A DNA stretch of 59,764 nt, counting the filler, from Circinaria calcarea (taxonomy: Eukaryota), in NCBI GenBank assembly GCA_051942165.1. It is 10 parts of 10 records of this genome, joined end to end, with 100 filler letters (N's around TTAATTAATTAA, not from the genome) between each part and the next. Parts side by side here need not be neighbours in the genome. Positions count along the whole stretch, not along the records: positions 17,985 to 23,877 come from JAVECS010001753.1; 9 more parts are not named here. One strand, given 5' to 3'. The translations under genes and the position numbers were made by a program. This document shows positions 5,896 through 47,494 of this stretch, piece after piece (position 1 is the stretch's first letter; every line of letters begins with the position of its first letter). The notes under the pieces were generated by a model, which made no database searches, was not told the origin of the DNA, and was given only the letters and a program-made list of their open reading frames with translations.

Positions 5896-5995
5896 NNNNN
5901 NNNNNNNNNNNNNNNNNNNNNNNNNNNNNNNNNNNNNNNTTAATTAATTAANNNNNNNNNNNNNNNNNNNNNNNNNNNNNNNNNNNNNNNNNNNN
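5896..5995. other. Artificial contig spacer (N-TTAATTAATTAA-N); same at 11891, 17885, 23878, 29867, 35856, 41837, 47816, 53791
   Basis: Nine 100-bp spacers with stops in all six frames; genes are cut at them and contig lengths never increase along the window. Confidence 0.98.
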
Positions 5996-6560
5996 CTCAA
6001 TGTACGGGAGTACTGGAAAGAGGCGCTCCCTTTCCTCTTGGACAAATTACGGACTAACTTTGATTAAAATAGATATTAGATACCGATAATCTTTCCCGGT
6101 TCACCCTCGCTTTACCACGGCTTTATCTATCCAGCACACTCCGTACCAAATTTGTATCATTCCATTCTAATAAATGCTATGCCGAATCCTCCGCCTGTCG
6201 CACAAGTGCCGAGTGACAAAGTTAAAGTCCAAGAAACCCCGCATCTACTGCAAAGTACATGGCGAAAAACAGCAAGAGGCAATCAGCTTCTCCATCAATG
6301 ACACCACGCGTAGGAGTGTGCGATTATTTGCAGCATCCATTCTCCTTGCCAAACCGTACCTCTTGCGGTAGGGCAAACATAGGCTACTGCTTTGTAAACG
6401 CGTGTCGGGGCGAGCAACTAGTTAATCTTTTACATGAATTGGTATACCATGGCTTGATATACGGTAATAGCATTAACTGCTTTGAGGATGGCTCTTACAG
6501 ACCTACTAACCACGCCCTTCAGAAAGCTAACCTTGTTCAATCTGGAGATATCTAATCGTT

Positions 6561-8573
6561 ATGTCGACTCCAAAGGATAAATACGATGTCGTGATCATTG
6601 GTGCTGGACCGGCCGGATTGCTCTTTTCTGTATGTCTAGCAAGATGGGGTTACAATATCAAACATATCGATAACAGACCAGAGCCAACACCTACTGGTCG
6701 CGCTGATGGTATTCAACCAAGGTCGCTTGATATTCTCCGCAACATGAATCTTAAGCGACAGATTATGGCCCATGAGCCTGCCAAAGTCTATGAAGTTGCC
6801 TTCTGGGATCCATTACAAGGGGGCAACGGTATACAGAGGACGGGTACATGGCCAAGCTGTCCGAAGTTCATTGACTCAAGACATCCATTTACGACTCTCC
6901 TACATCAGGGATTAATTGAAAGGGTTTTAATCGGAGACCTGCAGAGAAACGGGGCAGACGTGCAAAGACCGTGGACGATTACTGGGTTCAAGAACAATGG
7001 AAAAGATCAAGAGTACCCGATTGAGGTCAGCTTAAGACATGTAAATACAAACCAGGAAGAAATTGTTAGGGCAAAGTATCTGTTCAGCGGTGAGGGTGCG
7101 AGGAGCTTTGTCCGGGAGCAAGTGGGCGTAAAGATACACCATATGGATCCTATTGCGCATGTTTGGGGAGTTATGGATGGCGTTGTGCGAACCGACTTTC
7201 CCGATATCAAGGTTGTAAACGAGAATCTGTTCAGCGAATAAGTATTGACGGATGCAGATGAAATGTACCATTCACTCGGACCATGGTTCAATCATGGTCA
7301 TCCCTCGGGAAAACAACATGGTTCGTTTGTACATTCAATTGGCGTCTTCGACCGACAAAGACTGGGATCCACGTAAGAAAGTCTCCGAGGCGGAAGTACA
7401 GGCATCGGCTAAGAAAATTCTACAACCATATCGAATTGAGTGGGACAGAATCGAGTGGTACTCAGTCTACCCTATCAGGCAAGGCATTGCAGAGAAATAT
7501 ACACTTGACTATCGAGTATTCTTGGGAGGAGACTGCTGCCATACCCATAGTGTAAGCGCCTTGACCTGGCTGAAGATTCGGGAAGCGATCTGACTATATA
7601 TGAGCAGCCAAAAGCAGGTCAAGGTATGAATGCCGCCTTCCATGATGCCATAAATCTGGCCTGGAAAATCCATCATGTCGAAGGAAGGTTTGCAGATCGT
7701 TCCATCCTCACATCCTATGAATCCGAACGCAAGCTCATAGCAGAGAATCTTCTGAACTTTGACGCAAAGTATGCTTCTTTGTTCTCCCAGCGTCAGACCT
7801 CGGCCGGGGAAGTAAAAGCTACCTTGGGGTTAGAAGAGGAGAAAGGCGAAAAGGATAACCCGTTTATTGAGGTCTTCAAGTCGAGCTGCGAGTTCACCAC
7901 CGGTTACGGCATCGCATACAATCCAAATGTATTTAATTGGTCCTCGAACCACCCAGCCCAGTCTGCCCTGTTTCAGCGTAAAGGAGGTTCACTTGGCACT
8001 GGCCGTGTCATGCCCCCAGCGAACGTAACACGTGTCTCTGATGCGAACGTCGTGCAACTAGAACAGGAGGTTCCTTTCAACGGCTCTTTTCGGGTCTTCC
8101 TTTTCGCTGGGATGCCTTCAACCACCCGACGCGCCGTGATAGATTTTGCGTCAAATCTCATGAAAGATAAGAGTTTCTACAAACTCTACGAAAGGCAAGA
8201 CATCGCCCGTGTTAGTTGCCACGAACGTCACAACCCGCACTCGCACTTCTTCACAATTTGTACTACATTTACTGCATCGAGGCCTACAATTGAGATCCCG
8301 AAGCTCCTTCCGGCTGTCCTTGCGCGATACAGCGATCATGTATACGCAGATGACATCTGGGACTCTAGGGTTCCTGGTGCCAAGGCAGCCGCTCATGCAA
8401 AGATGGGACTTGATCAAGAGAAAGGCGGGGTCGTGATAGTCAGGCCAGATGGATATGTGGGCTGCGTGGTCGAATTAGTGGAGGGAAGCGGAACGGTTGA
8501 TGCCCTGAATCAATACTTTGGTGCTTTCTCATCGAAGCCGATCGGCAAGGCGGAGTCACGACCCCAGCTGTAG
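6561..8573 (+). CDS. FAD-dependent phenol 2-monooxygenase family, 3 exons (introns 7212-7257, 7552-7607)
   Basis: GAGPAG Rossmann motif, [32 protein letters not shown]-terminal VRPDGYV. Confidence 0.93.
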
Positions 8574-11709: not shown

Positions 11710-12633
11710 CTGATTCTGGCGGGCAGAGGCCTTGGTGGATGCACGATACTATGCGATGCGATGCTTATGGGTTCACGATTCCTACGGAAGGCTTTTCAAC
11801 TGTCTGTTCCGATACGGTGTACGATATTTCACGACGACGAAGCTCTCCAGCACTATATCCAAAGGTGTTTTGCACGAATCGATTGCTAGTNNNNNNNNNN
11901 NNNNNNNNNNNNNNNNNNNNNNNNNNNNNNNNNNTTAATTAATTAANNNNNNNNNNNNNNNNNNNNNNNNNNNNNNNNNNNNNNNNNNNNGTAGGTGTAG
12001 GATTGGCATGGTAATTGTGGGATATGAGATGTTATGGGGTTGGTATTGGAATGCGGGCAATATTTCTTTTGGGCACACGGTTTGAATAAAACAGGACTAC
12101 CTAGGTATCTAACTGAACAGCGCACGAAAAGAACGGGGGGGCTCTCTTCCCTTCTAGGAGATGAAAATGGCATCCCCTCCAATCCAACTCCCACCCACCC
12201 CCAAAATCCACAAGTACCATCCCCATACTCAGCGGAAGAATTCCGCGCAGCACGGCGCACAACAAGTATTCCCGCACGGATCGCAATTGATGTCAACTTT
12301 CCAGCAGATAAAGAGTCATTATTGCGAAAAACGCCACGGGGATCCCGACCGGTAAAGCGATGATCCCTAGGTGTTGCTAGAAATAGTTTCTTTTGTTTGG
12401 TGCTATCAGTTATGGGGGGTGCCATGGAGCTGCTGGGCATGTAAAAGTGGTTTATTTGGCGAGGCACGAGTGTAGCTCCGCGGCTGGATAGCGTTTGTGA
12501 GATGCGCAAGTAAGTTCATGGCAGAGGGTAGCGTTCCGAAATAGTTGTGGATAGAAACAGTAGTAAGGGCATATGTCTTTGTTGTGGTGGTGTAGGTAGT
12601 GCTGAAGGTGGTGATGCTTTGAGCTAGGCTATC

Positions 12634-13553: not shown

Positions 13554-14909
13554 TCACGCATCAAGCGTCCAGACCTTTACAACACCGTCGTCTCCCGTAC
13601 TGATAATCACCTCTTCATCATCGCTTCTCTTCTTTCGGTCTGCTCTCCGCGCCCAACAAACATGATTCACTTCGAAAACTCCATGGGCACCTTCAATCTC
13701 TGCGGCGGCATACCATTCAGTAGCTTCTTCTTCACTTTGGCGCACCTCCATTCCAGCCTCGTGAATGGAATTGTCGCCAACCCCATCGTTACTGCCGCTT
13801 TGCGTACTGACTAAGTTGTTCTTCGAAGGTCTCCATCGCTCTGCATAGACAACAATTTTACCATCCCCACCAGTGCTGACTATCCTCCCTGTCGTCTTAC
13901 TCCAAGCCACAGAGTACACAGCCCTTTCATGATTTTTTGGTAATCTTGCTTCCTCGACCCAATCTTCCTCATTACTTCCGGACTTAATTATGCTAAGCTT
14001 GGATTGCTGCGGGCCCTTTTCCCTCGGTCTCCGCCTCCATATCCTGATAGACATGTCATCTGAGCAGCTGAGCAGTCTTGGGCCTGAAGCCTCTCTTCTT
14101 TTGATCCATGTATCTTGCTCAGGAGTCCTTTGTGCCCCTTCTGGCCCTAGTAATGGTAGGTGTACGCCCTCCCACTCAACTGCCCAAACAGTGGCCTCGT
14201 GTCCTCGCAATACGCTCACGCAGCCCCAGTCATCAACATCCTCCCTCCACAGCCGTATGTCGTCATCGTAACTTGCACTCGCTAGCAGCTCCTCCTCCGC
14301 ATGCCAAGCTACACACTTGACGTCTCCTTGGTGTTCCTGGAGAACGGCAACCGTCTCAAAGTCATCTTCCCCAACCTCCTCCCATATCCAAACGCTCTTA
14401 TCCCGAGAGCAGGTAGCTAGGAAATTCCCACCCGTGGACCATGCCACTGACTTTACTTCGGAATCATGACCGTCCAGGACAAGTGCGAAGCGCCATTCCT
14501 CGTCTTCCTCGGTGTTGTCATTCTCCCCGCCTTCGATGCCACCCCATCCGTCGCTGTGTGATGCCACTTCCGTAAAGTCTACCTCGGCCGTCTCAGGTCT
14601 AGGATTCATGTCCCCTTGGTCCCATCTTTTCCAGACGCCCACGCTGGCATCGAAACTCCCTGTCGCAAGCACGCTCTCTCCCTTTACCCCGGGTTTCCAA
14701 GCACATGATCGCACACTTCTCTTGTGGCCACCAGTGATTGTAGATAGCAGAGTAAAAGATGTCAAACTATAGATACGCACGGACTTGTCAGAGGAGCAAG
14801 TTGCGACGAAAGGAAGATTTGGGTGCGGAGCGGAGAGCCAGGCACGGGATAGCGAGGGCGGTGTTAGGGGCGAGAGGAGGGAGAGTGTCCCTATTTGAGT
14901 GGATGACAT
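13554..14909 (-). CDS. CIA1: Cytosolic iron-sulfur assembly WD40 protein CIA1
   Basis: GHKRSVRSCAW, GHDSEVKSVAWS, LATCSRDKSVWIWE, HQGDVKCVAWH, AHGVFEVNHVCW. Confidence 0.95.
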   Translation of the reverse strand: MSSTQIGTLSLLSPLTPPSLSRAWLSAPHPNLPFVATCSSDKSVRIYSLTSFTLLSTITGGHKRSVRSCAWKPGVKGESVLATGSFDASVGVWKRWDQGDMNPRPETAEVDFTEVASHSDGWGGIEGGENDNTEEDEEWRFALVLDGHDSEVKSVAWSTGGNFLATCSRDKSVWIWEEVGEDDFETVAVLQEHQGDVKCVAWHAEEELLASASYDDDIRLWREDVDDWGCVSVLRGHEATVWAVEWEGVHLPLLGPEGAQRTPEQDTWIKRREASGPRLLSCSDDMSIRIWRRRPREKGPQQSKLSIIKSGSNEEDWVEEARLPKNHERAVYSVAWSKTTGRIVSTGGDGKIVVYAERWRPSKNNLVSTQSGSNDGVGDNSIHEAGMEVRQSEEEATEWYAAAEIEGAHGVFEVNHVCWARRADRKKRSDDEEVIISTGDDGVVKVWTLDA

Positions 14910-15154: not shown

Positions 15155-17018
15155 CGTAGCAGCGGAAAGTCTGGAGCAATACCCAAATTTGCCGAAATTT
15201 CTTAGTCATGCCCACCAAAATTTCGGCCGGGGTGGGGTCAAACAGTAGAAAATCAGATATGTAGTATTGAATGCTATTGCTATTCAGATAGTGTCTAATT
15301 AAAGCTATACGAATATTTAGCCTTGCTATAGCCATTGTCATTCATACTGCCTCCAACCCACTGACGCTGCCACCCCTCGCCGTCGCTGTTTTTAGAGCTA
15401 TTAGGCCTATTATACCTGCGCCTGCTACATTTATCACGCCTTTTATATCTTCCACGCTTACTATACTTATTATACCTGCTGTGCTTAGCACAGAGCATGG
15501 CATGGAGCATGGAGCATGGCATGGAGCATGGCATAGAGCATGGCATATAACGGAGCATAAAGCATAGTATATGGCATAGAATAAAGCATTGTATATGGCA
15601 TAGGATAGGGCATAGCATAGCATAGGGCATAGCATAGCATAAGGCATAGCATGGAGTATGGCACAGGGTATATAGCATATAGTAGCATAGAGTACGGTGT
15701 AGGGCACGGTATAAAGCACGGTATAACGTACGGCATAGAGTACGGTATAGAATACGGCATAGAGCGTAGCATAAAGCTGCTGCTATTACAGCTATTAATG
15801 CTATACCCTATACCATATACCCTATACCATATGCCATATTTTATGCTATGCTATATACCCTATGCCATGCTCCATGCTCCATGCTAAGCATGGCAGGTAT
15901 AGAAGGTGTGGTAAACGTGCGTAATAGGCGTGATAGACGTGGCAGGTATAGCGGGCGTGGTAAACGTGGCAGGTATAGTAGGCGTAGCAGGCGTGGCAGG
16001 CGTGCATAATAAATATAGCAGGCGTAATAGGCTATAAAAATAGCGACGGCGAGGGGTGGCAGTGACAGTGGGTTGGAGGCAGTATGAATGGCAATGGCTA
16101 TAGCAAGGCTAAATATTCGTATAGCTTTTAATTAGACACTATCTGAATAGCAATAGCATTCAATTGGGGGGGTTTTTTTTTTTGTTATGCTCGGAAGTTG
16201 TTAGGTAGGCCTGGAATAACAATGCTCCCAGCCAATCGATATCTCGTCTGCAGGGCCACCCCCGCCTGACTTTACACAGCTCTATTATACATCCACAACG
16301 GAGCTATGTTATGCTAGTGGAGCCTTCTCGCCAATATACCGGCTCAAATTCTGCGCCAACAAGATAGGCCTGCCACCTGGGCTTTACAACATCTGGCTTA
16401 GAGTATCCGTGCCGGGCTACCGTGCATAACATTATTCTTACTAGAAAAAACAAAACCTCCCAAATACTTAAGGGTTTTAGCAAAACTTGTTATGCTCGAA
16501 GAATATTAAATAGGGGCGGAATAATTATATTCCCAGCCAATCTATACCCTGCTTTGGAAAGAACCCTAATCTAGCTTTATATAGCTCTAATATTATTAAC
16601 AACAGAGCTATATTATGTTAAAGGGATTAACACGGAGGCGTAGATTTTAGGCCAGCATGGTATGCCTGTTATTTAAATCTTCCCACATCAGGCTTAAAAT
16701 GTCGGTGCCGGCCTTCCGTACATAACACACCTCCTACAGAATTTTGCTAAACCTCCCAATTAGTGAACGTTTCTGACCAATACCAGGGCGCAGATTCTGT
16801 GCCAGCATGATAGACCTGCCACCTGGACCTTACTATATCAGGCTTAAGGTCTCGGCGCCGGGCTCCCGTACATAACATACCTCTTACAAAATTCTGTTAA
16901 AAGACCCAACTACATATCTGATTTTCTACTATCTAATCCCCCCCGGCCGAAATTTTGGTGGGTATGACTAAGAAATTTCGGCAAATTTGGGTATTGCTTC
17001 AGACTTTCCGCTGCTCCG
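15155..17018. mobile_element. Non-autonomous TIR DNA transposon with ~110-bp TIRs and internal subrepeats
   Basis: Left cgtagcagcggaaagtctggagcaatacccaaatttgccgaaatttcttagtcat... is the reverse complement of ...atgactaagaaatttcggcaaatttgggtattgcttcagactttccgctgctccg (ends 17018, followed by TA); no transposase ORF. Confidence 0.88.
15266..16164. mobile_element. Nested foldback element: long inverted arms around pentamer (GCATG/GCATA) satellite
   Basis: attgaatgctattgctattcagatagtgtctaatt... at 15266 mirrors ...aattagacactatctgaatagcaatagcattcaat ending 16164; the satellite flips orientation near 15790. Confidence 0.85.
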
Positions 17019-17884: not shown

Positions 17885-17984
17885 NNNNNNNNNNNNNNNN
17901 NNNNNNNNNNNNNNNNNNNNNNNNNNNNTTAATTAATTAANNNNNNNNNNNNNNNNNNNNNNNNNNNNNNNNNNNNNNNNNNNN

Positions 17985-18067: not shown

Positions 18068-18419
18068 GATGGTACTGCTGCTTTAGCTTTCTGATTAGTG
18101 AGACGTCTCTGTTATCCTATACATTTTGCACCTACTGGTAATCAAGGGATCGAGTTTGTAAAGTATCGACTCGCACGAGTGGTGAAATATATCTACTGAT
18201 TAATTTGACGCGTAAAGTAATCCTTGTCAAATCGCGGCTAGTATTAGCGTTGGGTTAGAAGCGAATTTACCCAATTTACTCAATCCAGCTCATCGTATAA
18301 TCACCAGCCCCCAGCCTTTCAAATTCCCTATCAAAGAAAAAAACCCCGACTTGAATTCTCCTTACACGGCCTATATGAATTTTGATAAATAAAAAAAAAA
18401 CTCCAAAAAAAATGTTATC

Positions 18420-18553
18420 CGCCCGAGGAGGGGCTCGAACCCTATCTAATGTTAAATTTTGAAATGAAAATGAAGTAATGATGACTAACCTCAACCTTGA
18501 GATTTGCTCTTTTGCTAAAAGTCTCACGCGCTAGCCAATTGTGCCACCCGGGC
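18420..18553 (-). tRNA. tRNA-Lys(UUU) with two introns (12 nt at 37/38, 18504-18515; 48-nt GT-AG in T-stem, 18442-18489)
   Basis: Spliced sequence GCCCGGG TG GCAC AATTGGCTA GCGC G TGAGA CTTTTAA TCTCA AGGTT GAGGG TTCGAGC CCCTC CTCGGGC G folds into a cloverleaf; TATA-rich upstream region and downstream oligo-T terminator. Confidence 0.9.
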
Positions 18554-21500
18554 TTCTCGTTTTTTCCTTATTATAATATATAATTAAACCTCACACAAGC
18601 CTACGATACTCTTCTCTTCTTCCATGCTACAAATACTCCTCCACAAATCAGCTAGATCAAAGTAATCCATCGCGCGAGTTCTCCCCAATTACAAAACCAA
18701 AGCCGTAGAATAACCCAGGTGCTGGAATGGAACATGGCGGCTTCGCTAATCTACCAGCGATCCTAAGCTTCAACAATCTTCTTTACATTTACAGCGGCGG
18801 GAATGCTTTAGTTCTTTGAAATGGACAATGGACGTGGTTTTTGACCCGAGCCTCGAAGGGATGAATGGACACCATAATAGCATCGATTTGCGGGGCACAA
18901 TGTTGAGTTATCTTGCAGTGTCCTGGCGATTCAACAGCACAAGTTGACCGGACTCCCTGCCCACACGGGGGATCGTGGGAGAACACCACTCTACTGTGAT
19001 GATCAATCGCATACAGTCATTTCTACAGTACATACCAAACACGGCAATACCAGAGTCAATTACAGATCACAAGCAGCACCAGAAGGTATTCTATCTCACA
19101 CCACCCCCTCATGCACGCTTGTTATGTAGCTTGCTTTCTTTTCTCCAGAGATTCAACTCATAGCGTGCCTGCCCAGAGGAAGGTTTGCGGAAAGCGGATT
19201 GATATGTGCTCTTAGATTCGCAACCACAGCAATATTCCAACGCCAGTCGAGAAACCCCCTTTCTCTCCCGTATTTTCACTGGGTATCCTACCTAATCTGG
19301 GCCGTGCCGGGAGCGCGGCCGAGACTTCTCAGGTCTGGATGAATTGATCGTGCGGGAGACGGGGGGTTTGGATGTTGAGCATTGGGAGAGGAGGAACCCC
19401 CTCTGGAGCACCGACGACGTTTTTGCGGATTGAGGCCGGGAATGCTACAAGTACCCCGTACAGAGTAGAATACAGATGAACCCGGGCAGGAAGTCCACAA
19501 GGGGACTGTATCATGAAAAGTAATGCAGAGCTACGGAGTATGATCACTATCTTCTATACTAAAGCTGTGGGGGTATAATAGAATTACCCTGCTTATTGTA
19601 TTTCTCGCCCGAGTTGTCCGTACTCTGTGGGAAATGGGTGGGACTCTGATGGGAAAAGTGTCAAGGACGGGCATAGTCTCCAGTTCAGAGAGATATCGAT
19701 ATGACATGAAAGGGCTACTGCATGCGGGTCTATGGCTCATATCTAGGGGAATTACGATCGGCTGTAGATCCGAGTGCCCAGAGCAAGGGAACCTAGCTAG
19801 AAGTACAAGACATAGAACTGGGTACTGCCCATCGTCCAGATGGTTAGCTAGGATACTACTCGTATGGAATGATCCCGATTCGCATTTGCGTCAAGCTCGT
19901 CTGAGCTAGCATTGCAGATTGGTACTCTACCGAAATGCGTGGCTGACGGTTGTGTAAGACTCGTAATAGGTTTCTCGCTGGCCGGTGCTTGCATATGCTT
20001 CTGTCAGGGCCACGGCCAAGCCCGCCAGGATCTGCTGTATTGGTAAGAAGCTCAATCAAGTGTGCGCCGGCAACCTCCCCTAAAGCTCCTTGGAAGAATT
20101 CAATGACCTACGCTCCCCCTAGATCTGCAAGTAGAAAGCTACGAGTGCAACCCCGTTTGAATGCACCGAATAGGTTGGATGCTCATATCATCATGGAGTA
20201 AGCTCATGTCGGGTTGAATAGGTTGATTTTCAAACGTATGTCTTATTCCTGCTATAGTTGGTATTGGGTTTTTTTTTGGCCTCCTCGCCTTCGCTAGGTA
20301 AACGTTAATAGATGAAGACAATGATTGTCTCTCTGAAAGGCTAGTTAGTCTTGCCACCTGAACCAACCTTCTTTAGCTTCTGATGGCAGTTGTACATCGA
20401 CCTGATAGGTTGATTGCAAATAAGCCTGCAAGGAACAGAACCTTGGGTAGCATTCAAGATCGTATCTATGATAGCAGTAGATAGCCGGCTGGTTGGAGCA
20501 TGTATCTCAGAGCAGTACAGAATCGACAAGAAAACTGCAAGGATCCTTCAAGTGAGTTCACAGGACTAGTACTCGTAAACTTATGCCCGGCTCCACAACA
20601 CTGCCGAGCTCTCACACTAAAGTAATCAAATCGACAATTGGAGCTGTGGGGACAGAGCTGACTGCATATGCAACATGGATCTACCCTCGCAACCAAGCTC
20701 CCAAGCAATCGATGTGCTCTAAGAAAGTCGGAGATATCCGATCGTCTTCCGGCATAGAGAGGCTAGAAACTCGCTAACAAGGATGCCGAGCATCGGATAC
20801 TCTCAAACTCGAGAAACCGAGCATGCCAAGTCACAAGGTAGCCAAGCTGCTTGAACTAGGGAACAGTATCGAAGTACGAGAACAAGAAAGTATACAAAGG
20901 CCTGGAAAGAAGCTTTGTTTACCTTTTACCTGGGCTCTCAGGGTAACTGAGCACATGAATAACCAACGTGTCTGTAGTACAAGCCCGCTCGCTTCACGTC
21001 TTCTAAATGCATCGCATTCACAGCATCATTGCTCTGGGACTTTCACTCCATAAGAGCCAAACGTCATGATCATAACTCACCACACCCAGATAAGAAGGTC
21101 CCGAGGTAAGGCTTCCAGGTTTTTGTGTCGGTCCCAACATGTGCCTTGCCAGCCTCCCATATCCTCAATAGGAAGATCCAAATGGCCGACCAGCCCGATT
21201 AAATCCTGACTATTAGGTATTCTGCGTGTTCGTTCCTGTTGTTGATTATGCAAAGCAATGGATCGTGCTATTTAAATCCTCGTACTTGCAGTCGAAGGCT
21301 TATGGGAACTGAATTTTCGATCGGCCAACGCGAGCGATGAATGGGTTAGGCCGAAGTATGATGGATGCAACCTCAAGCAACGGGTTTCATCTAAGAGCTT
21401 ACTAAGAAAAGCCAGCGATGGTTGGATCGGCAATGGGAGGGTGGGTGTGGCTTGATGTTCGGAGGATCAGTAGCGAAACTGCGAACACAGAGTACGGCGG

Positions 21501-35955: not shown

Positions 35956-37017
35956 GATGAGTCAGTCGTTCGCCGTATCCTTCGTCACGCCATGGCAAAT
36001 CGTGTGTTCAAGGAGGTTCGAAAGGGAGTTGTTATTCACACAGTCATGTCAAAGCTGCTTGCAGAAGATCCGTTATTCCTAGAATACGTGGGTATAGGAA
36101 GCGAAGATATGTGGGCTGCAGCAGTGAATGTAGGTCATTGTTGCGGGTTAGGTTTATTCATTTTAATTATTCACAGACCGTCCCTGCGATGATCAAATGG
36201 CCAAACTCACAAGAGCCAACGCATACCGTAAGCTTGTCTCCCATCTTAATAGCTTTCTCCAGCTCACCAAGCTCTCAGGGATTTTCCTTTGCGAAAAACA
36301 CCGAAGACTCGATGTACCAGTACTTGGGGAAGCACCCGGACAAAGCAAAAAGGTTCGCTGCTGCAATGTCTGTGTCGATTACAGGCCATGGGTACGAGCT
36401 CGAGCACATCGTCAAGAACGGGCCGTGGGGTTCAATCGGAGCTGAAGGAGTTGTGGTCGACGTAGGGGGTTCCCACGGAGATGCGATGATTTCGATATCG
36501 AAAGCCTTTCCTACTCTCTGTTTCGTGGTCCAAGACCTTCCCTCCACAATTGAAGCTCATCCCGCTCTGCCTCCTGAGTTAGCCAATCGTATCACCTTCA
36601 TGGCCCACGATTTCTTCACCAGACAGCCAATTGAAAACGCCGATGTATTCTTCTTTCGCTGGATTTTCCACAACTGGCCGGACAAATACTGTCTGCTAAT
36701 CTTGCAAAATTTGATCCCGGCCCTGAAACCTGGGGCACGGATCGTCGTCAGCGAGTGGTGTTTGCCGGAGCCTCATACTATATCCAACAGGTTGGAGCGA
36801 AGAATGCGGTTCGAACTCCGATTTTTCTCCCTCGTTTTAAGATGCTAATTTTCCTCTCAGGGGGATGGACGTGTCTATGTTGACTATTCAGAATTCTCAA
36901 GAACGAGATCAAGATGACTGGATTAGTCTTTTCAGCCGCGCTGATAAAAGATTCAAATTCTTGGGTATTAAACACCCTAAAGGATCACACCTTTCGTTTA
37001 TTGAGTTCGGCTGGTAA
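35956..37017 (+). CDS. SAM-dependent O-methyltransferase (fungal secondary-metabolite type), multi-exon, 5' truncated
   Basis: RRILRHAM, VVDVGGSHG, VVQDLP, FMAHDFF, FFRWIFHNWPD, final exon MDVSMLTIQNSQERD...W; stop 37015-37017. Confidence 0.92.
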
Positions 37018-37246
37018 GATTTTCGGGGCAAAGCATCTATAGACGAATAGGTAGCTAAATAGGGCCCAAGGCCTTTTAATCTGTTTTCGGGCATAAATGG
37101 AAATGTAGTTTTTTAAACCTTGATTGAATATATCTACAACTCGCGTGGCAGCATTTCACCATTAAATGATTGATTACTATTTCACTATACGTTACATATA
37201 GAGGATGTAAGATGTCAAGTGTATAATAAGCTTAGAGAACAGAGCG

Positions 37247-40042
37247 TTATAATCCACGATCTAGTAAAGCACTCTTCAACTTCTTCTGAAACGCAAAAAC
37301 ATGGGTTGGACTAATCATGGTATAATGGGCGCCGTCGACCTCATGAAAGCGAGGCGGAGTTGCAGAAAAGTCGCGCCACTTGCTCAGATGTACCGCCAAC
37401 CACTGTTCTTTCGAACTCGCGACCGCAAGCAAAGGCACAGCGTAGAAGACATCGATATTCTGGACCGAACCCGAAGGTTCATATTCCCGAGCCATGCTCT
37501 GCAAGCTCAATGCCAGATCCGCCCATCTGGCCAACTTTCTTTCGTCCAGTCCTAGTTCCCTCATGCGATTGGGTGCTGCCACCTGAACCACATGTGCTAG
37601 GACTTGATCCCTGGTAGGCAACCGGTGCAGTTCCGGAGATAATGCCAGCGCATGTCTGTCGTTGATGAGGTCGAGAAAGTAAGACAGGTTGAGCAGGCAC
37701 TCAACCCAGTCGAGCTCTCGCATTCGGTGTTTGATGTGGGGCGGAAGGTTGAAGGAGCCTAGGAATTTGATTTCGTCATGGTTTCTGGATTCCATGATCT
37801 TTGCAATCTCGAATGCCAGCATCGATCCATACGAATATCCTGCGATAGCATAAGGACCGTTTGGCTGTTTCGTCTTGATTACCTCGTGATAGGCTTCCAC
37901 AGCGTCCTCTATACTGTGAAAGAACGGCTCTCCGTCAAATCCCCGGGCTCTCAAGGCATATACCGGCCGGTCGGTCATGAACTTAGCGAGTGCCAAGAAG
38001 ACAAGGATTTCTCCAACTCCGGGGTGGATAAGCCACAGGGGCGTTCTGGACCCATGACTTTGGAGAATCACGACCGGATCGTATCGGTGAGGCTTCTGGA
38101 TTTCTCCTAAAGCAAGTGCAAGAGATCGTACCGTAGGGTGAGTCAGAATTGTAACAATCGGTATATCAGCCTGCTTCAGGTGCATTTGAAGACGCTTTTT
38201 GAGCTTGATGAGATCAACAGAGGTCACGCCCATGTCAAAGATATTATGGTTGACCCCTAACTCATGTTTGGGAAAGTCAAAAACGCTTTCACATTCTTCG
38301 AGAATTGTTGCTTCCGTCTTATTTGCAGGTCCTTCGTGACGAGCCGCTTTATACAGAGCAACAGCCTTGTTGTTGAGTTCTTGATAGGATAAATAATCGC
38401 CTCGCTCAAAGGATGTCCGAATCTTAGCCCGAGAAAGCTTCCCTAGAGTGGATTTCTGTAACATGGAACCGTCCAACGGAAGTATATATGGTCTAACGCC
38501 CATCTGTAGCAAAGTCACCTTACAAATAGCATCATTAGTTTGGACTCGAGCCATGGCATCGTCGGTCTTGTAGGTTGGAAGATAAACCACGCATATATGC
38601 TCTGTTTGAGATGCATAAGGACGATATGAAAAGACAGCAATATAGCCCGACTGGGTTCCAACCAATGAGGCTTCTTCAAGGGAAACCTCGAGCTCGTGAG
38701 GGCTATAGTTGATTCCATTGATAATCATGGTGTCTTTTGCTCGACCGACAAGGTTTAACTGGCCGGACGCGTCGATAAATGCTTGATCACCCGTTCTAAA
38801 CCAACCATCACGAGTGAAGGCATCTGCAGTCGCAGATGGGTTGTTGTAATATTCCTTGAATACAATCGGGCCACTGACTTCGAGATCGCCACGCTCATTC
38901 GGCTCGGCTAGTTCTCCATTCTTCGTTGGCACCGTCACCCGCATCGTGATCCCAGGTATGCAGGAACCCAGAGCAGCAAACTCCCGTTGTTCTGCAAGAT
39001 CGTCCCGAGGGCAACCTTTATTGAAGATGGAACCAGCGCAGGTCTCTGTCATACCGAAACCAGGGCTGATGAAGCCGTCGCCGGCACCATAAGTTGCGAG
39101 AAATTTAGTCAAGGCATCACATGTCTCGACGAGATTAGCTTCACCCCCGGAAGTCAATGCTCGCAGGCAGGTAAGGTCCAGCTGATTCTGGACAGGGTCC
39201 ACACCCGGATTCCTTTTTATCGCTTCAAGAGCCTGCCTCAATTTTCCCAAGAAGAAATTAGGAGCAAAGGAAAATGCCACCCCGTGTTTGCTGAGAAGTT
39301 TGAGAAACGTGAGGGGTTCTGAAAGCAAATCTGCAGCATGGACATGGACTTGGTCTGCTCCAAGATACATTGCATGCAAGTGTCCTTCCACCAGACCCGC
39401 TACGTGATCAAGTGCGATCCAGTTGAGCAAAGTATCGCTACTTTGGGTACGGTGGCAATGGATTTTCCCGACGATAGCTTGGAGGATTTGGCCATGAGTC
39501 AGGCAGACCGCTTTTGCATTCCCTGTACTTCCGGAAGTAAGTATGAGGACAGCTAAGTCATGAGGTTTTAGGGCTTTTGAGTGGAGAGGTTTCGGGCAGG
39601 ACCATTTCTTGGCCAAACTGAGGCTTTCAACAGTGCTAGTCCTCAGTACATCCTGTCCAGCGAACTCAACCAGCAATTCTTGCCGAGTGATACACACAGG
39701 GTTTTTTAGGAGCGTGTTGAGATGGAAAATATGTTTCCTTCGCTGGTCGATACTGTTTGCCAGAGGGTTCGAGATCGTAGGAATGTATCCAGCAATTAGA
39801 ACAGACCAGAACCATTCAATGTTATCCAGATGATTTTTAAAGTGAATGAGCATATTCGAGCCAGGTGCCACACCGTCTATCTGGTGTAAAAGACGCGAGT
39901 TTTGCCGTGCTTTATGCAATAGTTCAGTATAAGTAACATGGTACGGGTTTTCGACGTTCCCGGGGGGATAAATCTGAAGGCCGCTATCTCCATTTTCGAT
40001 AGCTGCTAGGTTCAAAAGGTCCAATAAATTTTGAGGCTGCAT
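37247..40042 (-). CDS. NRPS-like A-T-TE enzyme (alpha-keto-acid-condensing family: AtrA/TdiA/MelA/ApvA/MicA type)
   Basis: LTSGSTGNAKAV, WIALDHVAG, FGMTETCAG, WFRTGD, PCP GVTSVD, TE GYSYG and GAHYTM; no C domain; intronless 931 aa. Confidence 0.95.
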   Translation of the reverse strand: MQPQNLLDLLNLAAIENGDSGLQIYPPGNVENPYHVTYTELLHKARQNSRLLHQIDGVAPGSNMLIHFKNHLDNIEWFWSVLIAGYIPTISNPLANSIDQRRKHIFHLNTLLKNPVCITRQELLVEFAGQDVLRTSTVESLSLAKKWSCPKPLHSKALKPHDLAVLILTSGSTGNAKAVCLTHGQILQAIVGKIHCHRTQSSDTLLNWIALDHVAGLVEGHLHAMYLGADQVHVHAADLLSEPLTFLKLLSKHGVAFSFAPNFFLGKLRQALEAIKRNPGVDPVQNQLDLTCLRALTSGGEANLVETCDALTKFLATYGAGDGFISPGFGMTETCAGSIFNKGCPRDDLAEQREFAALGSCIPGITMRVTVPTKNGELAEPNERGDLEVSGPIVFKEYYNNPSATADAFTRDGWFRTGDQAFIDASGQLNLVGRAKDTMIINGINYSPHELEVSLEEASLVGTQSGYIAVFSYRPYASQTEHICVVYLPTYKTDDAMARVQTNDAICKVTLLQMGVRPYILPLDGSMLQKSTLGKLSRAKIRTSFERGDYLSYQELNNKAVALYKAARHEGPANKTEATILEECESVFDFPKHELGVNHNIFDMGVTSVDLIKLKKRLQMHLKQADIPIVTILTHPTVRSLALALGEIQKPHRYDPVVILQSHGSRTPLWLIHPGVGEILVFLALAKFMTDRPVYALRARGFDGEPFFHSIEDAVEAYHEVIKTKQPNGPYAIAGYSYGSMLAFEIAKIMESRNHDEIKFLGSFNLPPHIKHRMRELDWVECLLNLSYFLDLINDRHALALSPELHRLPTRDQVLAHVVQVAAPNRMRELGLDERKLARWADLALSLQSMAREYEPSGSVQNIDVFYAVPLLAVASSKEQWLAVHLSKWRDFSATPPRFHEVDGAHYTMISPTHVFAFQKKLKSALLDRGL

Positions 40043-40499
40043 GTTCGGTGAGAAGCTCCCAGCAACTCAGCATAGAATGAAGCGGCGGTCTGAAGTCGCT
40101 TTCACAGATATGAAGAATGCAACAAACGAAGCTTAGATACTAAGTTGCAATCACAAAAAGAGCACCTACCTTTTCCACGAGCTTGAGGAGGCACTGTCTC
40201 AATGGGTAAATGGGATCCCAGCGGAGTGATGCGTCTTAGAAAGCGGTAGGGGCTGAGAATCCACTAGCTGTACCAGTACGGCGTTGGTCATCCTCTCTGT
40301 AGGCTCCCTATACGGTGTTGCCGCTGCACTCTCGTCTTTTTCCACGGTTCGATCACCATTTTGCGGTGCAGGTTCCTCCAAGGCTCTGAGAGATGCACAT
40401 TCAAAACCATGCAGCAAGGATTAAAGGCTAGGGCGAGGACTTCGAAGAGGCCGAGTTAGCGTTAGATGCCGGTTCACTGCATGATGGTCACAGAAACTA

Positions 40500-40690
40500 C
40501 TACGGTGGCAGGCAAAATAGTTCGTAGCGCTGCAGATCCCGTAGGGGTTAATTTCTTGCCATAATATCTATATCGCCATATCAATTTGTATGTGAAGCTA
40601 GACAGACAATAGTGTAATTTTATTAGCTAAATAAAAGCAGCATTGCCAAGCTTGCCAAGACGCTACGAATTATTTTGCCTGCCACCGTAG
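40500..40690. mobile_element. Tc1/mariner-type MITE (~190 bp) with TA TSD
   Basis: TA|ctacggtggcaggcaaaatagttcgtagcg ... cgctacgaattattttgcctgccaccgtag|TA. Confidence 0.85.
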
Positions 40691-41623
40691 TAGATAATAG
40701 GTAGGTAGGTTGACGCTATCTTTGAAAACGTACGCTGCAGACATTTAGATATTGCGGCGTGCTGTGCACACCGACAGCCTTATTATACCTGTCTTGAACC
40801 AATCGTATACCAGGTCCGGAGCTATGAGGGAATTTCCAACCAATTACTATATATCCCGTTTCTAGTTCCGCTTTCCTCCCGGCCCAACATAGTTCTCGAT
40901 ATGTCTGACGTTGTACACGGCGTCGATCCAGTAAGCTACGTAAGCTACCACGACTTGATCAGTTTTTTAGGGGGAAAAAGTCACCCGTGCTTCACTGATC
41001 CAGCGAGCTCCGCAGCCCTCCGCAACCCAAGAGCCAATCATGAAAGCCCATATTGGCACTTAGTCGTCGGCTTCTCCGCCCGCAAAGTGATCTGATAGGC
41101 TGTCACCCAATGCCAACCTGCATGCTTTGCCTTAGGATCATGCACTGTCCGTCTTGCTCCTGGGTGAAATCCGACCAACTCGGGACCCATCTGGAATGTT
41201 TGACCAAAGGAGGGCTTCCAAATAATGCGCGTAACAACAGTGTGCCGAGGTGTGTAGAGACTGAAGCATCTCGGTGTTCTGGAACCTGTGGACTGCACTT
41301 TGTCTTCTTTGAATGGCAAATTCCCATCCTCGCCGGCATTTCGTTAAGGATTTCGGGTACGCTGTTAGTTGCTAGGTAGTCTGTATCCCAGCCTTAGGCA
41401 TATGCATGATAAGCTTGCCTACCTATGTAAGTTTTCACGATTGCTTATACCACTTGTTTGAGAAGCAAGCACGAAATTCAACAAAACTGATTCAATATAT
41501 AGGCGTTTGTGCTCTAAACAACAGTCGCTGTTTCTATTCATCACCGTTTACATTATCCGAAACCCATTCCTTCATCTAAATCACCTCTCAAGAATTGTGG
41601 TGCGTGAACACGTGAGTTTCGGA

Positions 41624-41836
41624 ATGGATCCTCAACTGGCATTTCTGGGAATGGGCAATATGGGTCGGGTATGTGTAGATTCAGGAGATAACTGGCGTAG
41701 CTAACAATTGCTAACTCGACCAACCCCAGGCTATGAGCAAGAACCTAATAGCCAAGGGAGACCTAAAAAAGCCGCTTATCCTTTGGAACAGGACATACAG
41801 CCGTGCTACCGACCATAGCGTCAGAGTCGGGTACTC
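41624..41836 (+). CDS. 6-phosphogluconate/3-hydroxyisobutyrate dehydrogenase-like NAD(P)-binding protein, 5' part
   Basis: MDPQLAFLGMGNMGR, GT-AG intron, then AMSKNLIAKG...LILWNRT. Confidence 0.75.
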
Positions 41837-42365
41837 NNNNNNNNNNNNNNNNNNNNNNNNNNNNNNNNNNNNNNNNNNNNTTAATTAATTAANNNNNNNN
41901 NNNNNNNNNNNNNNNNNNNNNNNNNNNNNNNNNNNNCTTCCCCCCAAATGTCTTGCCGCCCTCGGAATGCGCCGTATCAACCAGTATTAACCTTTTATAT
42001 TCGGTTTATTTTTCCGAGTTCACAGCATGCACGCACTAATTCGCCTCAGTCTTATAAATGAACGTCGATTATTTTAAAAAAATTGAACACCAGCACAGGG
42101 CGAATGCGTTTGGTTACTCCAGGGCAAATTGTCAAACCTTTTCGGTTAGCTCCTCGGGCCTATATTATCCCGAGCGCCCACACACATATAGATAGATTCT
42201 CTTATTGCATAATATATATAGTAAAGCATAGCAGACATACACACAATTAAAATAAAAATTATTTTCTTATTTATTCATCGATATTATATAGTGACGCCGT
42301 AGCTAAACACAATACTAATTAATTAATATTTAATATAAATAAAATTTCGTTAACTATTAATAAAC

Positions 42366-42585
42366 TGTAAGGATCCTTTACGAATAGTATAATAATCTTA
42401 CGATAAGGGTCGGTAAATTGTGTGATAATGAGCTCAATGAGTTCGCGTAAGCGTATGAATTATTGCTAAAGAATTCTGGTGTAACGCTTCGCGAAGAAAA
42501 CCATTTTCGCTAAGCCAACACCTCGTGACCTCGGTGTATAGTTCCCCCGTAGGGTTCGTAGGGGTTCTCGGGTAGAGCCCTTACA
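42366..42585. mobile_element. Solo LTR copy 1 inside an AT-rich repeat relic (about 41937-42900)
   Basis: TGTAAGG...CCTTACA termini; highly similar to 48016-48237. Confidence 0.85.
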
Positions 42586-42974
42586 TTAATTCAGGTAATA
42601 TTTTTAAGTTTTTAAAAAAAATTAATTAAATTTAGGTAGTAATTATTAATTAACGTTTTTAAAAGGTTATTAGGTAATTATAACCGAGCTAAGGAGCCGT
42701 AATAGGCCGCCCCCCTTATTAAGCCGTATTCAGCTGCTTTTACTCCCTCTCCGCTCCCCCCGTGCTCCCTTATGCTCCTTCTTTACTCCCCCGCTGCTTT
42801 CTTACTGCTCCCTCTTAAAGCAGCCTTGCTCCCTTTCCACACTGAAAACAGATCAGGCTCACCCCATCTCGGGGAATATATAATATATAAATATATATAC
42901 GTCCTGTCAATCTAGTCGCACTGCTTGGGTATTGGTTTGTTTTCTTACCATACAGTAGATATATCGCTATACTA

Positions 42975-44298
42975 TCAATCCTCATTGGCTAGTATATAGC
43001 GATACCTGGCTTTCCCTTCTCCCATCTCCCTTAAGACCTCGTTGACATCCTTCATTTTTCTAACTTCAACCCATGGTTGGATATCCTCCTTCACAGCGAG
43101 TCGTAGCATATCCTCCACCTCCTTGACTGTACCAATATCGTTGAATCCGATCGAAATGCCCCGTTCGATCAGCCCGGCGACCTCAAGAGGCGGCATGGGG
43201 TCGTCTGGCATGCCAATCTGGCAGAACCGACCTTTGGTCCGTAGCAACTTCAGATAATCGTTGAGTGGCATATCTGCTGAGGACACCGTACTCACAATCA
43301 GATCGAGCGAATGGGCGTGCTTGACTGCCCAGTCTGGTTCGTCAGCTGTCGCAACGTAGAGGTCCGCTCCTAGTTTGAGCGCATCGGCCCGTTTGCTTGC
43401 GCGCCGTGATATAGCAACCACGCGGTCACACTTCAAGGCCCGAGCAAAGAGGACTGCAAAGTGTCCGAGACCACCAACCCCGATAATACCGACACGCTTC
43501 CCGGGGCCCGCTCCGTGCTCAGATAGGGGGACAAATGCGGTGATGCCCGCGCAGAGCATAGGAGCGGCCGCTTCGCTAGCAAGCCCATCAGGAATCCGAA
43601 TAGTTGAATCGCCGGGCACTCGACAATAGTTTGCAAAGCCGCCGTTGCTTTTACAGCCACTAGGGAAGGTCCCATTATATGCTGGAATACGGCGAGGACA
43701 GTAGTTCTCCATGCCGCTCGAACATTCGTCGCAGTCTGGTCGCCTGCACACGTAGACTACAGGGCCAACACCGAGTCGATCACCGACCCTTGGTCACCTG
43801 TCAGTAGCGGGGGAGAAAGCAGTCTGGGCGAGAGATACGAACTTGATATCCTTTTCAACCTTCCTTCCGACCCGCACAGCTTCGCCAACGATTTCGTGAC
43901 CCACACAGCATGGGTACTCGGTTGGGCCCTGAAGCAAAGTCAACGACACGAGGTGGGCGTCTGTTCCATAGGGAACGTACCCATCCACTCCTTAGAACAT
44001 GCAGGTCCGAGCCACATACACCGCAGCAAGTGATCTTGATATCGACATCCGTCTCCTCCCATTTCTTTGGCTGGAACGACTGGAGCTTCAAAGCGCTATC
44101 CACCGACTTCTCGTCGAGTGCCATCCAGCCAATGAACCGGGAATATAACCCATCCTCCCCGTCGCGTTCCCCGTCCACATCGGAGGGTGTTGGTGCAGCT
44201 CTTTTCCCTTTACCATCGTCGCCGCAATCCAGCGAGGGTTTCTCGAGTGTCTCGAGGTCGGGAACAGTCGTTGGCAGGGAGGGAGTGGAGAGTGCCAT
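42975..44298 (-). CDS. Zn-dependent NADP(H) alcohol dehydrogenase (ADH6/cinnamyl-ADH-like), 3 exons
   Basis: CGVCGSD, GHEIVG, structural Zn C..C..C...C, APMLCAGIT, GVGGLGH, GKARYRY. Confidence 0.92.
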
Positions 44299-45264
44299 GT
44301 GGTGGGGGATGCCTTTAGATCAGATATTAGTCATTAGCGCGCTACTGCTCTGCTCCAAGAAGATATTTGGGTTGGAGTTGCAGTATTACTCTAACATCAG
44401 GTAACTTGGGGACTCTTAAGTGTGCTGGTATCACAGCCTGGCGTATTGTACCTCTCGTTCCAACCTCCTCTAGCCACCTAAGCTGACCGACCGGAAGATT
44501 ACGGCCATTGTCCGATACCAGGTTACGAGCATGCAGACAAGCATGGAGACACTGTGCATGTTGGGATCGTGGCCGGCTGAAGTCCAGCTTGGGCCGTGCA
44601 TAAGAGGAAGACCGGCATACACTGGGACCTGCATGCACGGAGATCAAGGAGGGGAAGAAAAGCCAACGAGTGGAGTTGATAATCGGAACCATGGCTTTGC
44701 ATTACTCGACAAAGATCTCGGCGCCTAGGCGAGTAGCGGACATGATCGGTATGCCTCGATTGAAGCTCGCATGCTTTTGCAAATATTCATTGGCGCCCCA
44801 TACGCCTTCGACTTCTTCATGTGTACGGAATCGACAGGGGTGGGCAGTCTTCGCAATGGCGAGCTTCCACCTTGTGAGCTGGACTTTGCCAGAATCGCGC
44901 AATGTGGCCTACTTCGGGCCAAGGTGGACAGCTGAGCATGGCATGAAGCAACGTCTCTTAAGGGCAGTCACTACTGCCGCTGCCATACTGGGTTGCACTA
45001 CCTCGTACCCATGGCTGCCTCAGATACGCTGGCGTAAACTGTGCAGAAAGCTAGCTCTGCCGCAGCAAGCTTAGAGTGATGATCTCAAAGTGAGGTGCTT
45101 GCTGCGCGTCCATGCCGTCCGAGATTCTGGTCTGAGTGGGACGTCAACGGTGCTACTCCAAGATGGTAGCTCAAAGAAAATAAAAGGAAAAGCCCAGAGG
45201 AAGGCTTTCTTTATGCTGTCTCTAACTACTTGAAATTTCTCGACCGTGGCACGGACGGTCAGAC

Positions 45265-47494
45265 ATGACCCAAGTCATGCATCCCACGTCTTTCAAGCAA
45301 CAATGGGCCCGCTGCCTAGTTCGAGAGAACCTCTACCGCGAGCTGACTTGTCACAATGCAAAGGAATCAAGCTCTGGTACTCGACGCCTAAGGGACCTTG
45401 CGGTGCTTGATATTAGTAGGAAGGCTCCAATAAGCCCTGTCCAGCTGCCACTGGCACCGTCTCCTGAAAATTGTCAGAGGTCGGGACTGAGGGCTGTAAA
45501 GCTTAAGGTGTGCATCGTTGGTGCTGGTATCGCGGGGCTTTACACTGCAATGCTCTTGGATAGCCTTAATCTTCCAGGAGTATCATATGAATTGCTCGAA
45601 GCGTCGGAACGGCCTGGTGGCAGGGTCAAGACCCATCACTTTTCCCCCACCCTTCACGACTATTGTGACACAGGGGCCATGAGATATCCCAGAATCCCAT
45701 TCATGGAAAGGTGATGCATTTGCAAACGCCCTGCATGGAGTGCTGAGTTACTCATCTTTCTTATATAACAGAGCGTTTCGGCTGTTTCATCTAACCGGGG
45801 TTCCTTTAACTCCATATCACTTCCACGGACCCAACTGCCCGACCCTCTATAACGATATCTTGCAAGGGGACCAGCAACCCAACGAATTGGATGTTTTCAG
45901 ATTCGGTGTAACTAACGGAGGTTTAGTCCCAGACAGGTTCGGAATCTTCGTTCATATACCCTCACCGTTCATTGCAGCAGGATGTGTCGTTCCCCACACT
46001 GACTCCGACCCGCACCCTCTAAAAAAATAAACCGGAGAACGTCATCTTTTTCAACTTGCCGCTAATGATAATGACCTAGCAGTTATGTGGCAAAAGGCGC
46101 TAGCCAGATGCTCGAGGAGGCGTTCAAGCCATACAAAGACGCGCTGGCGATTGACTTTGACGGGAATTTTGATCTTCTATTGCAACAAGACGAGCATTCT
46201 ACCAGAGATTATTTGCGCCATAGAATGTAGGTGTCACCGTCCAAGACCTCTAGTTAACGGAAGAGCTGCTGGGTTAACCAAAATCCATCCTATAGGAAAT
46301 ATGACTACCATACTATTCAATGGTTGGAGACTATGGGCAGGTGAGGGTGTTACGCTTCCTTAGTAAATTGTTAGCATTCACAAGCTGATACCCGATGGTT
46401 TACTTGTATAAAGTGCGACGGGCCTCTTTGACGAGGCTTTTACAGAGAGCGTCATTGACTCCCTGGATTTTGACTATTCTGTAGAGCCAGTCAAATGGCA
46501 TTGCATCGATGGAGGTACTTCCTTACTCGTGGACAGAATGCTCAAGCTCATCAAGGGCAAAGTATCATTCAGAAAGCGCGTCATATCCATAGCTATCGAT
46601 AGGACGGTTACGAGCGAGTCGAACATGGTGGTGAAGGTCAACTCTGAAGAACTGCCGCGACGCTACGCCACAGTTTTCAACACGACAAGTCTAGCCTGCA
46701 TGCAGCGTATGGACCTTGGAAAGGCAGAACTACACCCAGCACAGAAAGATGCCATTCGAACCCTTCACTATGATACATCTGCAAAGGTCGCCATTAAATT
46801 CAGCTACCCATGGTGGGTCACCAAATGCGGTATCACCCGGGCCGGTGTGGCTTCGACGGACCTGCCCCTGCGGAATTGTGTGTATCCATCATACAGTCTC
46901 TCCGATAGCACCACCGAACCAGCAGTACTTCTCTGCTCGTATACTTGGGCTCAGGATGCACAACGAATAGGCTCATTGATCATGGACAACTCCCCCGAGG
47001 GCGAAGAAGAGCTAGTGGACTTGATACTCCGGAACCTGGCTCGACTGCATGCAAGGAGCATAAGTTATGACGAGATCAAAAAGGCTTACATGACGCATTA
47101 CTCATGGGACTGGTCCAAAGATCAGTACACATCCGGCGCTTTCGCATTGTTTGGTCCTGGCCAATTCGCCAATTTGTATCCATATCTCGTTAGACCGGCG
47201 GCCGACGCAAAGCTGCATATCCTTGGCGAAGCTGCCAGTGCACATCATGCTTGGTTGGTCGGCTCGTTGGATAGTGCTTACCGAGCCGTCCATCACTTCC
47301 TTCACAGGTTTGAGCTTTATGATGGTATCGATCAGTTGCAGCGCCAATGGGGCGCTGTCGGTGAGCTGGAAACCGGTAGCAGCGGGACTGCGCATCTCCA
47401 GGTAGCTCTGGGAAGACTTCGACCGGAGGAGCACATTCAGGTTGCAGGGGCGAACGATCTTGACGATTATGTGTTTGTACCGCGTGGCGGTTAG
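45265..47494 (+). CDS. Flavin amine oxidase / L-amino-acid oxidase-like protein, multi-exon
   Basis: VCIVGAGIAGL, EASERPGGRVKT, GAMRYP, TDLPLRNCVYPSY, YTWAQDAQR, GAFALFGPGQF, GEAASAHHAWLVGSLDSA. Confidence 0.9.

Follow-up and report, generated by a model that had tools for sequence, protein, structure and literature searches.

How could a tRNA gene that is interrupted twice, once in the anticodon loop and once in the T stem, still give rise to a tRNA, and which machinery would take out the second interruption? A tRNA-Lys(UUU) gene with inserts of 12 and 48 nt at these two sites lies in the stretch of Circinaria calcarea DNA analyzed here (59,764 nt, filler included; hereafter the window). We favor the reading, to which we give a probability of roughly 0.55 on the strength of sequence comparisons, that this is a working nuclear ascomycete gene carrying a tRNA-type intron of 12 nt and a U2-type GT-AG spliceosomal intron of 48 nt. 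The original prediction had gone one step further. The identity of the tRNA, the canonical intron and a second insert of spliceosomal form on the same strand all stood, whereas its claim that maturation needs the spliceosome did not reach the same footing and is treated below as part of the graded reading.

The covariance model RF00005 recovered the gene over the whole model (positions 1-71), scoring it at 30.1 bits where 29 is the gathering score, and placed extra bases at two sites, 13 nt in the anticodon loop and about 50 nt 5′ of the T arm; relatives free of inserts score 55-71 bits with the same model. ARAGORN at its default settings called no tRNA gene in the entire window. When both inserts were sliced out in silico, however, it called a 74-nt tRNA-Lys(ttt) with a 7-bp acceptor stem (one G-U), anticodon and T stems of 5 bp each and a variable loop of 5 nt, so that the T stem is restored by removal of the 48 nt just as had been foreseen. 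The only non-pair of this cloverleaf is A12-C23 in the D stem. This mismatch, raised earlier as a caveat, is indeed present, but it cannot be taken as a sign of decay; all four close homologues described below share it, and we therefore regard it as a feature of the lineage. The three exon pieces account for the whole molecule (Table 1). The first spans the 5′ strand of the acceptor stem, the D arm with A12-C23, the 5′ strand of the anticodon stem and the loop with UUU; the second comprises position 38, the 3′ strand of the anticodon stem, the 5-nt variable loop and bases 1-3 of the T stem (GAG); and the third holds the final two bases of the T-stem 5′ strand, the T loop, the 3′ strands of the T and acceptor stems and the discriminator G. 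Rfam at E≤10 found no second tRNA in the 59.8-kb window, and a script searching for a T arm with matching acceptor strands and a terminator returned this gene alone. The coordinates and sequence claims originally made for the gene and its two inserts were all reproduced by RF00005, ARAGORN and the script.

Table 1. Positions of the tRNA-Lys(UUU) gene, its parts and signals, and of other genes in the window
Feature	Positions	Strand	Basis
Whole tRNA-Lys(UUU) gene, three exon pieces and two inserts, 134 nt	18420..18553	-	RF00005, ARAGORN
Exon piece 1 (1-37 in tRNA numbering, 1-38 along the gene)	18516..18553	-	sequence, script
Canonical-position tRNA intron, 12 nt, after position 37	18504..18515	-	sequence, script
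Exon piece 2 (14 bases)	18490..18503	-	script; L003, L005, L009, L015
Spliceosome-type insert, 48 nt, between T-stem positions 51 and 52	18442..18489	-	script, composite motif
Putative 5′ splice site GTTAGT, directly after GAG of the exon	18484..18489	-	sequence, script
Putative branch site TTAAC, with the branch A 10 nt from insert 3′ end	18451..18455	-	motif search
Putative 3′ splice site TAG, followed by exon G	18442..18444	-	sequence, script
Exon piece 3 (22 nt)	18420..18441	-	sequence, script
A-box region, tRNA positions 8-19, uninterrupted	18535..18546	-	read from sequence
B-box region, tRNA positions 52-62, intact	18431-18441	-	read from sequence
T8 run resembling a Pol III terminator, 8 nt past the gene	18405..18412	-	sequence
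T10 run after T8	18391-18400	-	sequence
TA-rich block, 15-34 nt upstream of position 1; possible TATA-like element	18568..18587	-	sequence
O-methyltransferase	35961-36845	+	
Adenylation/carrier/thioesterase enzyme	37250-40066	-	
Zinc alcohol dehydrogenase	42978-43793	-	
Flavin amine oxidase	45226-47491	+	
Phenol hydroxylase	6531-8570		
CIA1-like WD40 protein, ascomycete affinity	13557-14909	-	

The 12-nt insert (gene positions 39-50) presents little difficulty. Eukaryotic tRNA introns are described, in the available text of one review, as short and located at a canonical site after position 37 (PMC10275265), and the insert agrees with this type in its position, its shortness and its pairing with the anticodon loop. 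Specifically, its AAAAG can pair with the CTTTT of the loop, and a 4-bp anticodon-intron helix is possible; the script bore out the earlier description of this insert as a normal tRNA intron that pairs in this way. The 12-nt insert thus lies at 37/38, as the rule for eukaryotic tRNA introns has it, whereas the 48-nt insert, at 51/52, does not.

The boundaries of the 48-nt insert (gene positions 65-112) can be drawn in four equivalent registers that leave an identical product, and one of the four is GT...AG. In this register the GTTAGT donor, TTAAC branch motif, TAG acceptor and GAG|G exon context of the original prediction were all found again on rereading, on the tRNA's own strand. TTAAC is the sole YTRAY motif within the insert, and its spacing to the 3′ end is the same as that of the CTAAC in the insert of a homologue (L003, see below). 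The insert is 77% A+T (37 of 48 bases) in a window of about 47% G+C, and it is unstructured, with a predicted folding energy of -0.1 kcal/mol. The T at +3 of the donor is a minority form; GTAAGC and GTAGGT are the commonest donors among the heuristically assembled mRNA introns of the window. The insert therefore has the extended donor on the host strand, the branch motif with YAG, and the length and composition of a U2-type GT-AG intron, as judged against an mRNA set that is heuristic.

The coincidence of these signals is rare. Among all 48-mers of the window on both strands (n = 116,786), 406 have the form GT...AG and 4 combine GTNAGT with YAG; when a YTRAY motif 3-20 nt upstream of the YAG is required as well, a single 48-mer is left, namely the insert. 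Random DNA is thus a poor explanation of the insert. We also considered an origin from a transposon or repeat and rejected it within the window, where the best other match to the insert was 15 nt long (E = 0.44). The earlier remark that the insert has no T run above 4 is correct, the longest being T4, but it carries no weight: 72% of composition-preserving shuffles of the insert are likewise free of T5, and for this reason we do not accept T-run avoidance as a sign of Pol III constraint.

The size of the insert had been likened to that of mRNA introns in the same window. Candidate introns that join open reading frames are 44-61 nt long in 15 of 34 cases, in a heuristic set that is visibly mixed with false positives and not RNA-verified, and the junctions at which Pfam domains are split (HVA22, phenol hydroxylase) permit GT-AG introns of 46-61, 43-88 and 53-74 nt. 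The 48 nt do fall inside the 44-61 range, so the match in size stood, but with support of this heuristic kind only. A splice-site weight matrix was dropped because the candidates are impure and because several GT-AG pairs fit each of the Pfam-anchored junctions.

Relatives of the gene were then sought in metagenomes with a 21-mer from exon piece 3, which retrieved 15 loci. Two are chance matches in G+C-rich sequence (L012, L013), two are other tRNAs (L006, L010), two are tRNA-Lys(CUU) genes without interruption (L011, L014), and five represent a different tRNA-Lys(UUU) with a 14-nt canonical intron only (L001, L002, L004, L007 and L008). The remaining four (L003, L005, L009 and L015, each at 293-422) agree with the window gene at 74 of 74 exon bases, A12-C23 included, and hence throughout exon piece 1. 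Their canonical intron is 7 nt long, against 12 nt in the window gene. They also carry a second insert, of 49 nt, between positions 12 and 13 in the D stem, which reads GTACGT...CTAAC...CAG with the putative branch A 10 nt from its end; here the GT-AG boundaries are unambiguous, no shift being possible. By the box positions that we assume, this insert splits the A-box region in all four loci. No tRNA was found by Rfam at E≤1 in any of the four, which, together with the empty default ARAGORN result for the window, upholds the earlier expectation that scanners overlook such genes. In the five loci of the second type (for example L002:335-422) the last 21 bases are common and the D stem is normal; their contigs belong to the same accession series as those of the interrupted type and presumably derive from another eukaryote in those samples.

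The homologues bear on a quite different way of reading the locus. With introns allowed, ARAGORN returns an 84-nt tRNA-Lys(ttt) from the unspliced sequence, in which a single long canonical intron (50 nt after position 37) is combined with a 15-nt variable arm and a 4-bp T stem. We find this barely credible. It counts as intron the 14 bases of exon piece 2, and these are contiguous exon, at 14 of 14 positions, in L003, L005, L009 and L015; we therefore reject it, and note that in this call a stretch of the insert can serve as the 3′ strand of the anticodon stem. Furthermore, it needs a G-U in the anticodon stem and a mismatched T stem, whereas two inserts leave a perfect class I cloverleaf. 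We know of no tRNA-Lys with a long variable arm.

The four homologous loci also allow a measure of constraint. L003 and L005 are identical and L009 is close to them, while L015 represents the same locus in diverged form. When L009 is compared with L015, 24 of 327 aligned flanking bases differ (7.3%), in addition to a 64-nt indel, and the D-stem insert drifts at the rate of the flanks, with 4 of its 49 bases changed. None of these changes falls within GTACGT, CTCTAAC or CAG, but by chance four changes would spare all 16 signal bases in about 21% of cases, so that this is not significant. The exons together with the canonical intron, in contrast, show 0 differences in 81 bases (0 in 74 for the exons). 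At 7.3% divergence, 74 unchanged bases are expected with a probability of about 0.4%, and we conclude that the D-stem-insert gene is under purifying selection. This comparison shows that this tRNA tolerates, and in one lineage maintains, what appears to be an intron of the spliceosomal type. In each of the four assemblies with a D-stem-insert gene, the 21-mer found one gene per assembly, which hints that no uninterrupted twin exists in those assemblies. The argument from selection covers the D-stem insert of the other lineage and does not extend directly to the T-stem insert, because the flanks of the two share nothing: blastn and tblastx of the window against the 15 loci aligned the tRNA exons alone.

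What the relatives do not share is the T-stem insert. It is in none of the 15 loci retrieved with the 21-mer; a metagenome scan anchored at both acceptor ends (5′ and 3′) and at the anticodon loop, which called for 41-71 additional bases in the 3′ half, returned 0 loci; and scans of genome-contig and viral-contig collections gave 0 matches each. The comparison with relatives that had been called for thus turned up the same tRNA with a spliceosome-type insert in four loci, but none at the T-stem site. Since 0 of 15 loci carry it, the T-stem insert may be young. These observations agree with an alternative in which the gene is one member, dead or dispensable, of a tRNA-Lys(UUU) family with several copies, recently hit by an intron-like insertion while other copies do the work. 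The closest homologues lack the T-stem insert, the spacing of the A box to the B box has doubled with the insert, to about 105 nt against about 57 nt, and had a young insert struck a dead gene, its exons would look just as intact. Nevertheless we hold this to be unlikely, if a serious contender. All 74 exon bases have been kept relative to the homologues although neither the flanks nor the canonical intron, 12 nt here and 7 nt there, can still be aligned, and nothing of the decay of exons, promoter or terminator that marks a pseudogene is seen: both box regions are unbroken and the T8 run is in place. Moreover, the exons of the related D-stem-insert gene are invariant, so interrupted copies are maintained, and a random insertion would fit the intron pattern only about once in 100,000.

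If the gene does work and the 48 nt are removed, removal need not be by the spliceosome; the tRNA splicing endonuclease, or another nuclease with a ligase, could be the agent. Such a route is not without parallel, as the available portion of a paper on disrupted tRNA genes describes bulge-helix-bulge (BHB) introns in the D arm, T arm and acceptor of tRNAs from Crenarchaeota and Cyanidioschyzon merolae (PMC3978253). We searched for this motif around the insert in all 4 registers with 16 bulge offsets each, and found no 4-bp helix with 3-nt bulges at its ends and both flanking helices of at least 2 bp; the best cases had H=4 with h=0, or H=3. By the same strict definition, 109 of 19,314 random site pairs carry the motif. 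The 48-nt insert is not a BHB-type tRNA intron, and it is, as noted, unstructured. Furthermore, removal by a nuclease would turn the GT, branch motif and YAG into an unexplained coincidence, and one that is seen again in the homologues' insert. To our knowledge, the eukaryotic tRNA endonuclease does not cut at 51/52 in the T stem. We therefore rate this route as very improbable.

The signals around the gene are those of a Pol III unit. On consensus sequences that we take to define the promoter boxes of a tRNA-Lys(UUU) gene, both the A-box and the B-box region can be assigned (Table 1); the intact B box, the TA-rich block upstream and the oligo-T downstream were seen as earlier described. The longest T runs within the gene are two of T4, one in the insert and the other in the anticodon loop. 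The latter is present in every tRNA-Lys(UUU) gene. Within about 1 kb of the gene there is no ORF of at least 85 aa and no Pfam domain. Pairs of 44-N filler runs recur about every 6 kb in the window (5896-5995, 11891-11990, 17885-17984 and so on), where they interrupt several ORFs, and the tRNA gene has one such pair about 440 nt downstream.

These signals weigh on the question of whether the spliced RNA might be a Pol II transcript instead, either a non-coding host or the UTR of a neighbor, from which the tRNA would be freed by RNase P and RNase Z, or never. The spliceosome normally works with Pol II, no recognizable coding gene was found across 15.9-22.4 kb, and the split A box of the homologues speaks against simple Pol III promotion there, which raises the question of how the D-stem-insert gene is transcribed. 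We nonetheless consider a Pol II host improbable, given that T8 and T10 follow directly after the window gene and that its intact A and B boxes and the TA-rich block at about -30 are Pol III-like. Splicing of a Pol III RNA also has a precedent in the U6 RNA of fission yeast, according to the accessible part of a survey of U6 introns (PMC5855946).

Based on these observations we propose an order of events for a working gene. Pol III would transcribe it from the two intact boxes, despite their wide spacing, and stop at T8. The spliceosome would act first and take out the 48 nt, since the T arm has no way to form while they are in place. RNase P, RNase Z and the tRNA endonuclease all require a folded tRNA body; once the T arm had folded, these enzymes could act, the 12-nt intron being cut by the tRNA splicing endonuclease and the exons sealed by tRNA ligase. 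Two features sit less easily with a spliceosomal intron. The 3′ exon is short (22 nt plus the trailer), and stable tRNA helices could compete with assembly of the spliceosome. As to origin, the 48-nt insert probably arrived by an intron-gain event, into either the tRNA or its gene, and a different intron, between positions 12 and 13, would have been gained by the same tRNA in a related lineage. Whether tRNA-Lys(UUU) genes of one ascomycete lineage have in this way repeatedly gained true spliceosomal introns, here in the T stem and there in the D stem and A box, we regard as an evenly balanced proposition.

The closest known parallel is the mRNA-type intron that interrupts the gene for U6 snRNA in Schizosaccharomyces pombe and in further fungi (Tani and Ohshima 1989, 1991, and Canzler et al. 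2016, all cited in PMC5855946). As far as the available sections of the citing paper go, the resemblance is that the gene of a small, structured non-coding RNA made by Pol III contains a GT-AG intron and its branch site, and the U6 introns occupy lineage-specific positions that are taken as independent insertions, with reverse splicing as a proposed origin. Unlike U6, however, the host here is a tRNA, which also needs RNase P, RNase Z and a further splicing system unrelated to the spliceosome, the tRNA endonuclease with its ligase; and since a tRNA is no component of the spliceosome, nearness to the catalytic center cannot explain the gain. In the parts of the literature at hand, spliceosomal introns are also recorded in ascomycete rDNA (Bhattacharya et al. 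2000, cited in PMC5855946) and in U1, U2, U5 snRNA and U3 snoRNA genes (PMC5855946; PMC5832005). These are similar in that fungal non-coding RNA genes are the hosts, the splice sites are canonical and presence varies among related species, but they differ in that the hosts are transcribed by Pol I or Pol II or are long RNAs, and a tRNA is not named among them in those passages. The non-canonical BHB introns of Crenarchaeota and of the red alga C. merolae's nuclear genome resemble the present case, in the excerpts available, in that extra introns lie in the D arm, T arm and acceptor and standard scanners miss the genes (PMC3978253); those introns, however, are defined by RNA structure and cut by the tRNA endonuclease, whereas the 48-nt insert has GT, branch motif and AG and no BHB.

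The portions of recent reviews that we could draw on describe tRNA splicing as independent of the spliceosome and carried out by a protein endonuclease at one fixed position, and assign to the spliceosome the Pol II transcripts together with a few RNAs of the small nuclear, small nucleolar and ribosomal classes (PMC12530127; PMC10275265). A search of full-text literature, a corpus largely outside the subscription journals, yielded no description of a spliceosomal intron in any tRNA gene, nor is one mentioned in the available text of reviews that treat the processing and introns of tRNAs, U6, or disrupted tRNA genes (PMC12530127; PMC10275265; PMC5855946; PMC3978253). We accordingly class spliceosomal introns in non-coding RNA genes as known, and a tRNA, a host with a splicing system of its own, as what would be the new class of host.

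If the favored reading is correct, this gene would join U6 as the second natural example of a Pol III-type RNA spliced by the spliceosome, and a single small RNA would pass through both the spliceosome and the tRNA endonuclease. tRNA-Lys(UUU) is needed for AAA codons, and its supply would be tied to spliceosome activity. Counts of tRNA genes made with standard scanners would be too low in such fungi, genes overlooked by annotation pipelines would find an explanation, and the gene would offer a compact substrate for studies of intron gain.

Several other genes were noted in the window (Table 1). The CIA1-like WD40 protein assigns the window to Ascomycota. The enzyme genes at 35961-47491, in the order O-methyltransferase, adenylation/carrier/thioesterase enzyme, zinc alcohol dehydrogenase and flavin amine oxidase, resemble a secondary-metabolite cluster. 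Three overlapping open frames on the minus strand at 15298-15850 have highly repetitive translations rich in Tyr, Cys, Leu, Ala and Met, a pattern that points to short, tandemly repeated DNA and not to a gene.
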